In this document: positions 23,591 through 39,410 of the stretch, in pieces | Layout: each line of letters begins with the position of its first letter | How positions within the stretch are numbered: the stretch's first letter is position 1 | Assembly: GCA_963707635.1 (NCBI GenBank) | Contig: OY970173.1 | Span: forward strand, 288,001 to 352,000 | Reading direction: 5' to 3' | Source: Candidatus Latescibacterota bacterium | Lineage (GTDB): Bacteria; Krumholzibacteriota; Krumholzibacteriia; WVZY01; JAKEHA01 | Length of the DNA: 64,000 nt | The notes under the pieces: model-generated | The model's database searches: none | What the model saw: only the letters and a program-made list of their open reading frames with translations | What the model was told of the DNA's origin: nothing | Position numbers and translations under genes: made by a program

Positions 23591-25069
23591 ATGAACATCA
23601 CGCTGCTGGAGCGTTTGATCCACGAGATTCGCGACGACCTCGTGGGCCGGTCGCTGGGAACTCCGTCGTGGGTTGCGCCCGTGCTGGCGATCCCGGTCGG
23701 CGGGGTCGGCGTCCACCTGGTCGCGATCCTGGAGTCGCCCGGACCCTTCTGCTTTCTCGCGGACGCATCGCCTTTTGGCGCCGCGCGTGCGCCGGCCCGA
23801 TTCGCGAAGCTAAACGGGGCCAAGATCCGCGACATCGTGCTGCACGACCAGGATCGCATCCTGCGCATCGATGCGGTGACACGCGCCGATCGTGAACCCG
23901 TGAGCCTGCAGGTGCGGTTGTTCGGATCCGCAGGCGGCGCCGCGCTCTTCGACGATGATGCCATCGGCGAAACCGTCGGGGCGATGCGCGTCGAGACCGA
24001 GGGGACCGCGCGCGCACGGCCCGAATGGTCCGTGTGGCCGCCCGCGCCGGTGATGCTCGCGAGCCGTGGGCGTCTCGCGCTCGCCGCGCCGGTGGCGGCT
24101 TCGGACGCTGCCCCCGGCGAAGGGATGTTCGGCCCCTTCGCCGATGCGCGAACCGCGTGCCGTCACGTCGGCGGGCTGATTCTCGACGCGGCACACACCG
24201 CGATTCTGCGCCGCATCGCACGGCCGGCGCGGCGCAAGCTCGACGGCATGCACAAGCTGGTCGTCAACCTGGAGCACGACCTCGAGCGTTCCGGCGACCA
24301 CGCCGATGTGCGCCGGGAGGCGGAAACGCTCGCCGCCTTTCAGTCGCAGGTGCCGACCGGCTCGGCGGGCGTGACTCTTCCCGACGTCTACGATCCGACG
24401 CGCGAGGTCTTCATCGAGCTGGATCCCACCGAGTCGGTTCACGTGCAGGTCGAGAAGCGATTTCGCAAGGCGGCAAAGCTGGAAAAAGGCGCCGTGCACG
24501 CACAGCGCCGGCTCGAGCTCGTCCGTCGTGAGATCACGGAACTCGACGCGGCACTGGCCGTGCTGGAAGCGGGAGGAACGTTCGAAGCGTCGCTGCGCAC
24601 GTTCGAGGCCTTGCGGGCCAGGTTTGGCATCGAGCTGGAAGGCCCGCGCGTGACCAGCGGTGCGGCTCCCCGCCGGCAGGCGGCCGGGAAAACCTATCGC
24701 CAGTTCGACCTCGACTCGCGCTGGTTCGCCCTCGTCGGCCGCAGCAATCACGAGAACGACGAGCTCACCTTCAAGGTCGCGGGCCCCGGCGATTACTGGT
24801 TCCACGCGCAAGGCGTCGCGGGCTCGCACGTGGTGCTCAAGTCGCGGGGCGGCGGCGATGGGCCGTCGGCCCGGATCATCCAGCGGACGGCAATGCTCGC
24901 CGCGCATTTCTCCAAGGCGCGGCACAGCAGCCTGGTCCCGGTCATCTACACCCAGAAGAAATACGTGAGGAAGTTCCGCGGCGCCAAACCGGGACAGGTA
25001 GCCTGCGAGCGCGAAGCCATGGTGATGGTTCCCCCGGTCCTGCCGGGCCCCGTGACCGACTCCTCCTAG
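23591..25069 (+). CDS. NFACT family protein (RqcH/FbpA-like, ribosome quality control)
   Basis: Start reassigned to ATG 23591; N-terminal DRIL, coiled coil with IELDP, C-terminal GRSNHENDELT...WFHAQGVAGSHVV...YTQKKYVRK. Confidence 0.85.
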   Translation: MNITLLERLIHEIRDDLVGRSLGTPSWVAPVLAIPVGGVGVHLVAILESPGPFCFLADASPFGAARAPARFAKLNGAKIRDIVLHDQDRILRIDAVTRADREPVSLQVRLFGSAGGAALFDDDAIGETVGAMRVETEGTARARPEWSVWPPAPVMLASRGRLALAAPVAASDAAPGEGMFGPFADARTACRHVGGLILDAAHTAILRRIARPARRKLDGMHKLVVNLEHDLERSGDHADVRREAETLAAFQSQVPTGSAGVTLPDVYDPTREVFIELDPTESVHVQVEKRFRKAAKLEKGAVHAQRRLELVRREITELDAALAVLEAGGTFEASLRTFEALRARFGIELEGPRVTSGAAPRRQAAGKTYRQFDLDSRWFALVGRSNHENDELTFKVAGPGDYWFHAQGVAGSHVVLKSRGGGDGPSARIIQRTAMLAAHFSKARHSSLVPVIYTQKKYVRKFRGAKPGQVACEREAMVMVPPVLPGPVTDSS

Positions 25070-25077
25070 GCGCCTCC

Positions 25078-25114
25078 AAAAAAAAGAGAGGAGCACCGAA
25101 GTGCTCCCCTCTTT
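25078..25114 (-). terminator. Rho-independent terminator (minus strand; possibly bidirectional)
   Basis: AAAGAGGGGAGCAC-TTCG-GTGCTCCTCTC-TTTTTTTT on the minus strand. Confidence 0.9.
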
Positions 25115-25345
25115 CGCGTTCCTAGAGAGCGATACCGCTCGGAATCACGCTAAGGGCAAGGGCTATGATTCACTGGCTTGGCGAGCCACTCAGGGGAAGG
25201 CACTCGACCTCGAAGACCAGAGTCCACAAGGAAAGGAGTACGCAGCCTCCAGGTACCGCCCTCTAGTTGACCGCAACACCGCCTCTTCCTGTATCCCGGT
25301 ACCCCTGCTGGAGCACCCTTCCTTAGATGCGGCACTGCCGTCGGA
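25078..25345 (-). ncRNA. Candidate sigma54-dependent small RNA (~270 nt)
   Basis: Bounded by a sigma54 motif and a strong terminator; only short ORFs with no SD and atypical codon usage. Confidence 0.5.
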
Positions 25346-25356
25346 CATTGCAATAC

Positions 25357-25372
25357 GCAACCGACATGCCAA
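25357..25372 (-). promoter_or_regulatory. sigma54 (-24/-12) promoter
   Basis: TTGGCAT-GTCGG-TTGC matches TGGCAC-N5-TTGC with exact spacing; AT-rich upstream region holds the palindrome TTAGCTAGCTAA (25410-25421). Confidence 0.75.
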
Positions 25373-25509
25373 CCTGCCGAAAGCCAGGCGCACGCAAAAA
25401 CACGGTAACTTAGCTAGCTAAATGCTATTAGGAACCTGTAGACGGGTGTATCGGGCGGGCGGAAAAAGCTACGAGTAAAGCAAATTGACGAGGCGGAAAT
25501 AATTTTAAC

Positions 25510-25761
25510 TTACCGGTCTACGAACCCGCTCTCTCCTTCGAACGGATTGGTATCCTCCGGAATCCAGTAAACGACGATAGCACTGCCGTATGGGCCGGCG
25601 ATGAGAATGAACATCCCGCCGTCTTCACCGTAGCCCAGGATTTCCCCATCGGGAACGGCGCGGTCCCGGGACGAATTCGCCGCAATCGCGAATGACGCCA
25701 CCGGCACGAACGCCAGCAGGAGGCCCAGGCAAAGCACAACTATCCGGACGGGTCGTTTCAT
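25510..25761 (-). CDS. Small exported hypothetical protein
   Basis: 83 aa with a Sec signal (MKRPVR...ASFA); -10-like TATAGT 8 nt before the ATG. Confidence 0.65.
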   Translation of the reverse strand: MKRPVRIVVLCLGLLLAFVPVASFAIAANSSRDRAVPDGEILGYGEDGGMFILIAGPYGSAIVVYWIPEDTNPFEGESGFVDR

Positions 25762-25819
25762 CAGGGGAGACTATATCAAGAAAACGGCCATTCGCAAAGC
25801 CCGAACTTTCAAGGTTTTC

Positions 25820-27736
25820 TTAAATTTTTCGACTCTCCCCGAGGCGTGGTCCGGCCACCCGGACGTTCCCCTGGCGCCGCGTGACCCCCGTTTCGTCGAA
25901 ATACTCGAGCAGCGGGATGGCGTGTTTTCGGGTCAGCCCCAGGGCCGCCTTGAGATCCCCCACCGAAACCTCCGCGCGCGTCTCGATCAGCGTTCGGATA
26001 ACGACCTCGCAGCGGGCGAGCGCCTCCGGGTCGACGAGCCCGTCGCCCAGCTCCACGATCTCGCCGCGGTCCCTCATCAGCTGAACGACGTCCGCGAAAC
26101 GTTCCCCTCCCGCCCACGTGCGCGAGACTTCATCCCGCGAGAGAAACGTCACACCCGCGGCGCGGATCCGTTCCCGCACGGCGCCGACCGCGGCTTCCAG
26201 TGGCGCGGATAGCGCGAGCGCGGGCGTTCCTGCCCGCACGCGGTTCTCGCGGACGAAGAGCGGCTGCATCGTCGCCAGCACGTCGATCACACGGTTGAAG
26301 ACGGCCGTGCCGTGGACGAAACCCAGACGTTGCCGCAGCTCCTCCTTGTCGATACCCCAGTGCAGCGGGTTGCGCGCCGTGTGCGCGAGCGCCAGTTCCG
26401 CGGCCCGCGCCGCGAGCGCCTCCAGCGCCCGCCGGTCGAACAACCGTCCCGACACCGCCACCGCGGACCCGTCCGCGACCAGCGACGCCGCGGCGGCCGC
26501 GTCGACACGCGCTTCCTCCACCCCTTCGGCTCCGGCGCGCTCGACCGTTTTCGCAAGCACGGCGTGCGGATCGCCCTGTTCACGGACGCGCAGCCGATCG
26601 ACCGCGGCGGCGTCGGAGCGCCGGTGCGGTTCGGCGCTCGGATTGACGACGACGCCGCCGCCGATCACCCGGGCCGGTGAGTAGGTGCGAATTACGACGC
26701 GGTCGCCGGCATCAGCGACGATCGGCGACTCCAGGCGCAACTGCGCGAGCCCCGATTCACCGGTGTGGAGCGCGTCGCCCTCGAGGAGGATGACCCGCCC
26801 GAGCACTTCGCGCGCTCCGTGGTGGATGCGAACCCGCTCCCGGTTCTCGAGCTCGACGTCCCCGTGCGCGGCCAGCGCCAGCCGCACGTCGACGGTGGTC
26901 GCCGCGGCAAACCGCCCGGGTGTCGTCAGCATGTCCCCGCGTTCGATCTCTTCGAGTTTTGCTCCGTGCAGGGCCAGGGCGATTCGCTCGCCGGCGGTCC
27001 CTTCCGTGCGCCTGGCGCCGAAACTCTGAATCTCGCGCACCCGCACGCGCCGCCCCAGGGGCAGCAGGTCCAGCTCGTCGCCCACCACCACACGGCCCGA
27101 ATAGCAGCTGCCCGTCACCACCACCCCAATCCCCTTCTGGTGAAAGACCCGATCGACGGCGAGCCGAAACGCTCCCGTCGCCGCGCGTGTCTCGACACCG
27201 CGGGCCAGCGATAACAGCTCGGCACGCAACGCGTCCAGCCCGGCGCCGGTTCGAGCGGACACCGCCACCACCGGCGCACCCTCGAGAAACGTCCCCTGCA
27301 CCAGCACGGCAATGCTTTCATAGAGCGCGGGCAGCGCTTCGTCGGCGACGAGATCCTGCTTTGAAATCGCCACCAGGCCACGACGCACACCGAGCGAGCG
27401 CAACACTTCGAGGTGTTCGACCGTCTGGGGCATGACGCCCTCGTCCGCGGCCACCAGCAGCATCGCCAGGTCGATTCCCCCCGCTCCGGCGACCATCTGC
27501 CGGACGAAGCGCTCGTGTCCGGGGACGTCGATCACGCCGACGAACACGTCGTCCGCGAGCGGCAGCGGGGCGAAGCCGAGCTCGATCGAAATACCGCGCT
27601 CTTTCTCTTCTTTGAGGCGATCCGTGTCGTGGCCGGTGAGCGCGCGGACCAGCTCGGTCTTGCCGTGGTCGACGTGGCCGGCGGTCCCGAGGATGAGGTG
27701 GCGCGGCGCGGGGGAGGTTGCGCGGGTCGGGTTCAC
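25820..27736 (-). CDS. selB: Selenocysteine-specific elongation factor
   Basis: [39 protein letters not shown]-terminal winged helix [17 protein letters not shown] start right after the murA stop. Confidence 0.95.
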
Positions 27737-27737
27737 A

Positions 27738-28991
27738 TCACTGGGCGGCGCGTTCGATGCGCGCCCCGATGGCCCGGAGCTTCTCTTCGATGCGCTGGTA
27801 CCCGCGGTCGATGTGATACACACGCAGGATCTCGGAGCGTCCCGTCGCGGCCATGGCGGCCAGGATCAGCCCCGAACTGGCGCGGATGTCGGTCGCCATC
27901 ACCGGCGCGCCTTCGAGCGACGACACGCCACGAATGACGGCGAGGTTGCCGTCCAGGCGAATGTCGGCTCCGAAGCGGCGCAGCTCCGGCACGTGGGTGA
28001 AGCGGTCGGGATAGATGGTTTCCTTCACGGTGCTGACACCGTTCGCGCGGCAGAGAACCGCGATGATCTGCGCCTGCATGTCGGTCGGAAACCCGGGGTA
28101 TTCCCGCGTCACCACGTCGGTCGCGGTGAGGCGCTGCGGCCCGATCACGCGCACGCGGCGGTCGCCGACCTCGACGCGGCACCCGGCCGATTCGAGCGTG
28201 GCCAGCACGGCGCCCAGGTGGCCGGGGTCGCAGTGCGTAACCGTCACGTCGCCGCCGGTGATGGCGGCCGCGGCGGCGAACGTCTCCGCCTCGATGCGGT
28301 CCGCGATGACGTCGTGGCGCAGCGGCCGCACCGACGTCGCGCCGTGGATCACCAGTCGCGCCGTCCCCGCGCCTTCGATCTCGACCCCGCATTCATGCAG
28401 CGCGTGGACCAGATCGGTGATCTCCGGCTCGAGCGCGGCGTTTTCGATGACGCTGGTGCCTTCGGCGAGCGCGGCCGCCATCACCGTCTGCGCGGTGGCG
28501 CCCACGCTCGAGGTCGGGAACACGACTTCGGCGCCGCGCAAGCGCTTGCAGGTGGCTTCGATATAGCCGTGGTCGAGCTGAATGGTGGCGCCGAGCTTCT
28601 CCATCGCCATCAGGTGAAGGTCGATGGGCCGCGGCCCCCACGCGCACCCTCCCGGCATGCTGACGCGCGCACGCCCGTGCACGGCGAGCGTCGGCGCCAG
28701 CACGTAGATCGACGCGCGCATGGTACGCACGAGATCGTACGGCGCCTCGACGCCGTTCGCGGCCGAGGTATCGATGGTGAGGACGCCGCCCTGCTGGGAC
28801 GTCTTCGCCCCCAGCACCTCGAGCATTTTCGCCATGGTGGCGACGTCGCGCAGCTCGGGCACGTTCTTGATGACGCTGGTCCCGCGCGCGAGCAGCGCCG
28901 CCGCCATGAGCGGCAGCACCGCGTTCTTGGCGCCGTGGACGCTCACTTCCCCGTGCAGCGGGGTCGGTCCGTCGATGATGAACTTGTCCAT
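27738..28991 (-). CDS. murA: UDP-N-acetylglucosamine 1-carboxyvinyltransferase
   Basis: [27 protein letters not shown] (catalytic Cys), [21 protein letters not shown]. Confidence 0.97.
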
Positions 28992-39032: not shown

Positions 39033-39410
39033 CTACTTGCGAACGCCGAGGATCTCCTGGATGCGATCGATCAGGCGGCTCGGGCTGAACGGCTTCACGA
39101 TGTAATCCACCGCGCCGACCTCGTACCCCAGGCGCTTGTCGAGGTCCCGTCCCTTGGCCGTGAGCAACACCACCGGGATGTTCTTCGTGTCGGGGTCGCG
39201 TTTCAGGCGGCGGCACGTCTCGTAGCCGTCGAGGACCGGCATCATGACGTCCAGCACGACCAGGTTCGGCCGTTCTTGCTTCGCCTTTTCGATGGCGAGC
39301 TCGCCGTTGTTGGCCGTGATCACCTCGAAGCCTTCCGCGCCCAGGCTGAAATCCAGGATGTGCAGAATGTACACCTCGTCGTCGACTACCAAAATCTTCC
39401 CGAGCGCCAT
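39033..39410 (-). CDS. Stand-alone response regulator receiver domain
   Basis: VVDDE, LDVMMP (phospho-Asp), LTA, KPF; SD GGAGG. Confidence 0.93.
   Translation of the reverse strand: MALGKILVVDDEVYILHILDFSLGAEGFEVITANNGELAIEKAKQERPNLVVLDVMMPVLDGYETCRRLKRDPDTKNIPVVLLTAKGRDLDKRLGYEVGAVDYIVKPFSPSRLIDRIQEILGVRK

Follow-up and report, generated by a model that had tools for sequence, protein, structure and literature searches.

A candidate sigma-54-driven regulatory RNA with an invariant hairpin loop, conserved between selB and an rqcH-like gene in one order of Krumholzibacteriia

The window analysed here is a stretch of 64,000 nts (positions 288,001 to 352,000 of contig OY970173.1), and the host genome is a 3.2-Mb single contig that is 96% complete. 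Between selB and a convergent rqcH-like gene, the first-pass annotation had proposed a minus-strand transcription unit of about 270 nts. The unit measures 268 nts, starting at the predicted +1 (25345) and including the whole U tract, which ends at 25078. It is surrounded by the following genes and features:

23591 to 25069, plus strand: rqcH-like (NFACT) gene, convergent with the RNA; Pfam domains NFACT_N and NFACT-R, called start uncertain
25078 to 25345, minus strand: non-coding RNA, 268 nts from the predicted +1 to the end of the U tract
25510 to 25761, minus strand: small secreted-protein gene of no known family, delimited by alignment, 83 aa in the window
25770 to 25797, minus strand: sigma-70-like promoter motif before the small secreted-protein gene, a consensus match only (9 of 12)
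25820 to 27823, minus strand: selB, the upstream neighbour; Pfam SelB domains, start codon uncertain

The RNA adjoins the rqcH-like gene in 28 of 30 loci and selB in 27, the remaining three stopping at a contig end. Both neighbours are present in 25 loci, and the other five hit a contig end on one side. The 6S RNA, RNase P RNA and tmRNA are all located elsewhere in the host genome, hence the RNA is not a stand-in for any of the three.

BLAST recovered the RNA from all 35 other genomes of the uncultured order (22/22 and 13/13 in its two families). It is single-copy in each of the 36 genomes searched, no second copy being found in the host genome, and the 21-mer ATCATAGCCCTTGCCCTTAGC occurs exactly and once in every one of them. 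Among 172 other genomes of the phylum, matches to the 21-mer were limited to seven genomes, at three mismatches and about as often as for a reversed control. An all-species search with a 19-mer returned 39 exact stretches, of which 33 are the RNA and six are unrelated DNA. As an independent test of invariance, 9 of 64 parts of a metagenome collection were scanned with the loop left free, which gave 137 matches. Eight of these carry the promoter, CAGGAAG and the junction; the loop is identical in seven and has a single added A in the eighth. A 21-nt word fixed across two families offers a handle for pull-down experiments and a marker of the order in RNA data.

Outside the order, BLAST found the long RNA in none of 25 genomes, and a covariance-model search of 78 genomes, with strict filters and 34 candidates scored per genome, gave one weak match (E 0.029, 20 bits). 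An exact 26-nt pattern had no occurrence in viral contigs. The long form is thus order-specific, while the locus itself is likely to be older. A full but divergent copy with promoter and enhancer site was also seen at a locus (L113) whose record is titled Chitinivibrionia, a title or binning that may be off. At gathering thresholds, Rfam reported only five tRNAs in the window and nothing on the RNA; a scan by E-value gave terminator-driven matches far below threshold, and the loci of seven relatives gave none. Searches of the open text of PubMed Central and bioRxiv found no description of the RNA; the supplements of large motif surveys, which lie outside that text, could hold one. These results agree with the earlier proposal of an undescribed RNA.

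The upstream region was compared in 33 homologues, a set made of loci with enough upstream DNA after truncated, duplicate and unrelated loci had been left out. Its elements in the window are:

25357 to 25372, minus strand: sigma-54 -24/-12 promoter motif TTGGCAT-N5-TTGC, kept in 33/33 homologues; rpoN is present in the genome
25410 to 25421, no strand assigned: palindrome TTAGCTAGCTAA, within the AT-rich spacer that in relatives contains an IHF-like word
25475 to 25489, no strand assigned: predicted enhancer site 2, one mismatch, the second of a tandem pair
25499 to 25513, no strand assigned: predicted enhancer site 1, GTAA-N7-TTAC with one mismatch; the site and the stop codon of the small gene overlap

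The sigma-54-type motif that had been read from the window at 25372-25357 is conserved beyond chance, and in all 33 homologues it lies 158-199 nts ahead of the invariant loop described below. A spaced-word search upstream of it found GTAA-N7-TTAC de novo. The word is exact in 24 of the 33 homologues and present with at most one mismatch in all of them; in 22, it forms a tandem pair with 19-24 bp between sites, 105-153 bp before the -24 element. Among 99 sigma-54-like motifs in the host genome, only the promoter of the RNA has two such sites. Genome-wide the word is no commoner than its reversed control, so that no regulon emerged. The palindrome, which had been noted from the window alone, is there, but it is found in only one of the 33 homologues. 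In the same spacer, the IHF-like word YAA-N4-TTR occurs in 24 of 33 homologues and is absent from the window's own copy; a control stretch gave 0/33, in a test that is lenient because the control is coding and GC-richer. The working upstream element is therefore likely to be the GTAA-N7-TTAC pair rather than the palindrome. A search for rpoN, suggested when the unit was first proposed, found the gene together with 14 full-length enhancer-binding proteins. It is likely that the RNA is switched on by a single dedicated enhancer-binding protein acting with sigma-54 polymerase.

The sole exact GTAA-N7-TTAC of the host genome (G000:C1:1436568-1436582) is located in the gap between divergent genes and ahead of a small heat-shock-like ORF, and no sigma-54 motif is paired with it. 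Downstream of rpoN lie hpf, an HPr-kinase-like gene and PTS genes, but no rapZ (G000:C1:1278062-1283429, plus strand; names by resemblance).

Parts of the stretch are contained in 18 RNA runs from 18 studies of soil, sediment and rhizosphere. Six of these runs were aligned to the window, with contigs that show neither strand nor level. Those of four runs, each from a different study, are:

25114 to 25343, strandless: RNA contig X17, three differences
25120 to 25333, strandless: metatranscriptome contig X2
25158 to 25333, strandless: metatranscriptome contig X8
up to 25334, strandless: metatranscriptome contig X4, followed by adapter letters

These contigs end 2-12 nts inside the predicted +1, at 25333-25343, in agreement with the 5′ end previously predicted near 25345, whereas in the other two runs (X1 and X3) the contig of a close relative extends upstream to 25651 and about 90 letters further. 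Transcription reading through from the sigma-70-like motif at 25797-25770 could explain the extension, as could DNA in the library. In X3, the upstream-extending contig has a depth of 950, against 3.7-7.9 for six other long contigs on the window, which is no more than a hint of abundance since contig depth cannot rank genes. Low or absent contig cover on selB and rqcH in these runs was not counted as evidence.

Two of the contigs connect the RNA with the gene upstream and a 52-aa ORF does exist, hence the unit could be imagined as the mRNA of a small protein or as the mere 3′ trailer of its neighbour. The ORF opens at an ATG (25348) 3 nts before the predicted +1, close to where it had first been placed. 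It is not conserved: only 3 of 33 homologues have an ATG at this position that begins a frame of at least 30 aa, the reading frames across the loop differ among homologues, and single-base indels occur in the core of the RNA. As the promoter and enhancer of the RNA are themselves conserved, this reading is already largely refuted and we regard it as scarcely tenable.

The minus-strand reading is supported by folding, with a z-score of -4.34 (none of 200 shuffles is as stable) against -0.79 for the plus strand. Covariation, proposed at the outset as a check, was scored over the whole structure in the 33 homologues and reached 0.278, against 0.165 for shuffles (none of 500 reaches the score) and at most 0.115 for slid controls; the structure scored derives from folding the window copy, so that the comparison with the slid controls is tilted in its favour. 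The elements of the RNA, in transcript order, are:

25269 to 25342, minus strand: 5′ domain with outer helix P1 and an inner hairpin (25318-25298), from the fold
25283 to 25292, minus strand: conserved, largely unpaired word ACAGGAAGAG, with C-x-GGAAG invariant in 33/33
25122 to 25266, minus strand: 3′ domain closed by helix P2 (25266-25254 with 25134-25122), from covariation
25200 to 25241, minus strand: variable hairpin P3, of varying length and sequence, with base pairs partly kept
25191 to 25200, minus strand: C-rich junction CCUUCCCCUG, present in most homologues and altered in four (L093, L107, L108 and L113)
25175 to 25187, minus strand: small hairpin P4, 97.7% of cells paired
25142 to 25171, minus strand: hairpin P5 with the invariant word AUCAUAGCCCUUGCCCUUAGC (25169-25149), exact in 36/36 genomes
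25078 to 25114, minus strand: intrinsic terminator, a hairpin flanked by a U tract and, on the opposite side, an A tract; from sequence and covariation

Changes on both sides of a pair are found in 11 of the 13 pairs of P2 across the 33 homologues, in 3 of 6 in P3 and in 1 of 4 in P4. Within the genus, the same holds for 5 of the 7 consensus pairs of P1 and for 7 of the 16 of the terminator. The fold of the 5′ domain differs in family f2. The C(UUCG)G hairpin followed by eight T that had been recognized by inspection is present and, as these pairs indicate, maintained among relatives. A terminator scanner found nothing at this hairpin, a miss that is likely explained by the A tract pairing into the U tail. 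A pseudoknot between CAGGAAG and CUUCCCCUG is not supported, as two-sided changes are absent from all seven of its pairs and the most distant homologues disrupt it.

The main feature of the RNA is the invariant hairpin loop at 25171-25142. About 45 nts of the RNA are nearly invariant across the two families, and AUCAUAGCCCUUGCCCUUAGC contains a tandem of GCCCUU, which occurs twice. In the predicted P5 stem, five of eight pairs are constant and two-sided changes are seen in none of the eight, which indicates that the sequence of P5 is itself under selection.

Order-wide conservation, synteny, covariation, rpoN with 14 activators and the RNA contigs strongly support the original proposal of an undescribed sigma-54-type non-coding RNA, and the locus almost certainly holds a genuine non-coding RNA gene. 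The RNA family is new, its kind, the sigma-54, enhancer-driven regulatory RNA, is known, and its regulatory function is presumed. Hardly any regulatory RNAs are known from uncultured phyla, and here the promoter, a new enhancer word and the terminator can be read from the sequence.

The other half of the first interpretation, that the RNA is a sponge for CsrA/RsmA, did not hold. The most deeply conserved word, ACAGGAAG, resembles a CsrB repeat, and it recurs in short RNAs of another family (f5, see below). The GGA words listed in the first-pass annotation are present as well, but their number is at chance: seven against a shuffle mean of 4.7, with 183 of 1000 shuffles reaching seven, and a single ANGGA. 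Look-ups for csrA and hfq, both proposed at the time, found neither in the 96% complete single-contig host genome, and no CsrA-like N-terminus was found there or in 56% of the genome of relative G027. A CsrA sponge is hence very improbable. CrcZ is also sigma-54 driven, and the RNA shares with CrcZ and with the CsrB/RsmZ sponges its length, the lack of an ORF and its own promoter and terminator. It differs from them in its strongly covarying fold, in having no array of a repeated word and in a host where neither Hfq nor CsrA was found.

Searches of the host genome for proQ, rapZ and a Ro60 (TROVE) gene were equally negative. An identity as a Y RNA was discarded because no Ro60 gene was found, and one as an Hfq-bound RNA of the CrcZ or Qrr type because no hfq was. 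Candidate partners which are present comprise four single-RRM proteins and two KhpA/KhpB proteins, any of which may bind the RNA. Two near-identical single-RRM genes stand in tandem, with near-identical leaders of 170 nts (G000:C1:953303-954250, plus strand).

A role in binding RNA polymerase, like that of Ms1 or CoRP and possibly aimed at the core enzyme or the sigma-54 holoenzyme, was also weighed. The RNA resembles 6S, Ms1 and CoRP in size, in possible abundance and in its lineage-specific sequence, and the authors of PMC11077062 expect further classes of such RNAs. The same paper found a single type of abundant RNA bound to the polymerase in each species, while the host has a separate, canonical 6S. 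Moreover, the RNA has no match to these RNAs, the fold is different, not a long bubble-bearing rod, and no correctly spaced mimic of a -24/-12 element was visible by eye. We consider this role quite improbable.

Alternatively, the RNA could be the structural component of a new stable ribonucleoprotein, for example one tied to ribosome rescue or translation through RqcH and SelB. The near-invariant 45 nts, the fixed place beside rqcH and selB and, as a hint only, the depth in X3 would fit such a particle. Against it, rqcH is present in 25/25 genomes of other orders without the long RNA, an enhancer-dependent promoter suits a regulated rather than a housekeeping RNA, and duplexes with the rRNA operon are no stronger than expected by chance (-20.4, with -20.9 for shuffles). 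This makes a structural role improbable, if somewhat less so than polymerase binding.

The invariant, unpaired C-rich words suggest a base-pairing sRNA independent of Hfq, in which the loop and junction would provide the short seeds for pairing with many G-rich ribosome-binding sites in the manner of RsaE/RoxS or Pxr, an RRM protein possibly acting as chaperone. The 21-mer reads as an anti-AUG followed by CCCUU, and a seed with many targets would be kept from changing. Pairing RNAs that act without Hfq do use C-rich loops. RsaE/RoxS of Firmicutes likewise have conserved C-rich unpaired stretches in hosts without a working Hfq, a likeness that extends to the host here, where no hfq was found; the RNA differs from them in its larger size, its sigma-54 enhancer control and the lack of a sequence match or of any target found. 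An RRM protein of Bacteroides has been found to bind sRNAs that act by pairing (PMC11697453).

The target scans did not bear this out. Antisense sites to the 21-mer at up to three mismatches were absent from the 36 genomes, apart from the RNA gene itself. Over 2622 roughly called starts of the host, the best duplexes of the 21-mer, the loop and the junction were within or weaker than shuffled controls, in scans of a type that misses seeds of 6-8 nts. A joint ranking of 646 orthologue pairs from two genomes, using 2.4 of the 4.3 Mb (56%) of G027, also remained within shuffles, as did a seed scan with ACAGGAAG. Shared 8-mers gave nothing beyond shuffles.

Three individual candidates failed too. 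The leader of a response regulator pairs well in just one of 30 orthologues. The junction between yeaH and spoVR is loop-compatible in 3 of 23 cases, and the motif also occurs in orders that lack the RNA. For an MglA-like GTPase gene, the start is at background in 28 of 30 orthologues. In the other two, it pairs strongly (-23.5 and -26.8 kcal/mol), and the -26.8 kcal/mol duplex, which beats every one of the host's 2622 starts, is the main result against a protein decoy, the reading set out below. In addition, GGGAAGG, which matches the junction, precedes 16 called starts where 2.5 are expected, being also an ordinary ribosome-binding word. Short seeds acting on many targets are possible. Given these scans and the lack of compensatory change in the P5 stem, base pairing remains a somewhat doubtful explanation, which nevertheless comes close to the decoy reading.

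The host has two MglA-like small GTPase genes (G000:C1:2323881-2325341 and 2425446-2426036, both minus strand), one with a long C-terminal extension. Such genes are found in 35 of the 36 genomes of the order, the naming being by resemblance since Pfam gave only Arf. A prkA-yeaH-spoVR-like operon lies at G000:C1:2170296-2174971 (minus strand). The C-terminus of YeaH has a conserved FLGKG[RK], whose codons overlap the ribosome-binding site of the next gene, and G-rich glycine codons are preferred there.

The reading to which we give most weight, with a little less than even confidence, is that the RNA is a signal-induced decoy, comparable to GlmY or CrcZ, which would bind an RNA-binding protein through the invariant P4-P5. 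A signal would activate one enhancer-binding protein, sigma-54 polymerase would then transcribe the RNA, and the fixed P4-P5 surface would bind and titrate the protein, in the way that GlmY titrates RapZ. Stem and loop of P5 are equally fixed, consistent with a partner that reads the sequence of the stem itself, and hence with protein binding rather than pairing. The lack of antisense sites to the 21-mer, target scans at the level of shuffles and a host in which neither Hfq nor ProQ was found also speak for a decoy, a reading that rests largely on the failed target scans. Against it, the partners of known decoys (CsrA, RapZ and Ro60) were not found in the host, no mRNA leader was found to carry a mimic of the loop above shuffles, and GCCCUU occurs just twice. 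Known sponges usually repeat their binding site many times. As the usual RNA partners were not found, either mechanism would name something new, be it a partner protein or a seed that works without a chaperone.

GlmY, a decoy driven by sigma-54, GlrR and IHF that does not need Hfq (PMC4152352), is a close parallel. Both are stand-alone structured RNAs with a sigma-54-type promoter and upstream activator sites, and the IHF site of GlmY has a counterpart in the IHF-like word of 24 of 33 homologues here. Both also adjoin a gene for an exported protein, which for GlmY is yfhG in the glrK-yfhG-glrR locus, as described in the same paper. Unlike GlmY, the RNA has no Rfam match to GlmY/GlmZ, no RapZ found in its host, no paralogue and no adjoining kinase or activator gene; its enhancer word is another one, and it is about 270 nts long with a multi-branch domain. 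Pxr of Myxococcus and relatives is an RNA of about 110 nts located downstream of the activator gene nla19 (PMC5568312). According to that paper, it is lineage-restricted and usually single-copy, has a sigma-54 promoter and several stem-loops, and its targets are hard to find, all of which the RNA shares. The RNA is 2.5 times longer than Pxr, contains the invariant 21-nt word and has no Rfam match.

The small secreted protein beside the RNA is 83 aa long in the window and 118-130 aa in relatives; the window copy has lost about 45 residues and kept the C-terminus, which carries the conserved motif E-[GS]-G-[FYW]-x-[DE]-[RK]. The protein is found in all 36 genomes of the order and in 28 of 43 genomes of family f5, which belongs to another order, while four of 129 other genomes have matches, at E above 1e-4 only. 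Its family comprises 83 representatives among 1.84 billion proteins, and Pfam gave no family over the cut-off. The homologue modelled was:

L009:1935-2315: secreted-protein homologue in a relative, a beta-rich orphan family of about 125 aa

The model of this homologue is beta-rich (pLDDT 84.7). Searched with it, the PDB gave no match at E≤0.001, and the best entry for the protein in the ESM Atlas, at 0.79, was not a usable match.

The 25 rqcH loci of other orders include four of family f5, and all four have a short RNA of 73-132 nts in the same place. One of them is:

L043:1309-1381, plus strand: short f5 RNA, with matching places in L044, L045 and L047; no Rfam match

In all four, the end of the secreted-protein gene is followed by AT-rich enhancer-like sites (scored with two mismatches allowed), a sigma-54-like motif, the short RNA and a terminator facing rqcH. 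The word ACAGGAAG lies near the 5′ end in three of the four, all of one genus, and the fourth has TAGAAAG. None of P2-P5 was found in the four short RNAs. As the covariance model scores them weakly (E 0.002-0.18 in three), the case for homology is made by their place in the genome, the arrangement of the promoter region and the shared 8-mer. How a small RNA acquires a domain may be illustrated by the short form at this locus.

The position of yfhG next to glmY invites the speculation that the secreted protein is linked to the signal. A more specific version, which we consider unlikely, is an envelope-sensing circuit made of the secreted beta-protein, a dedicated activator and sigma-54. Its output would be a two-module RNA, with an old, short ACAGGAAG module common to both orders and an invariant-hairpin domain added in this one, bound by a protein for which no decoy RNA is yet known, such as a single-RRM or KhpA/B protein, and working without Hfq, ProQ, CsrA or RapZ. 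If true, such an RNA would represent a new class of bacterial ribonucleoprotein regulator.

Two further observations concern the window and the host genome. A stand-alone receiver-domain protein encoded at 39033-39410 (minus strand) of the window is unusually conserved, with 77-98% identity across all 36 genomes of the order. ARAGORN reported an 88-nt tRNA-Ala(agc) at G000:C1:1564292-1564379, whose anticodon and length are unusual for a bacterium.
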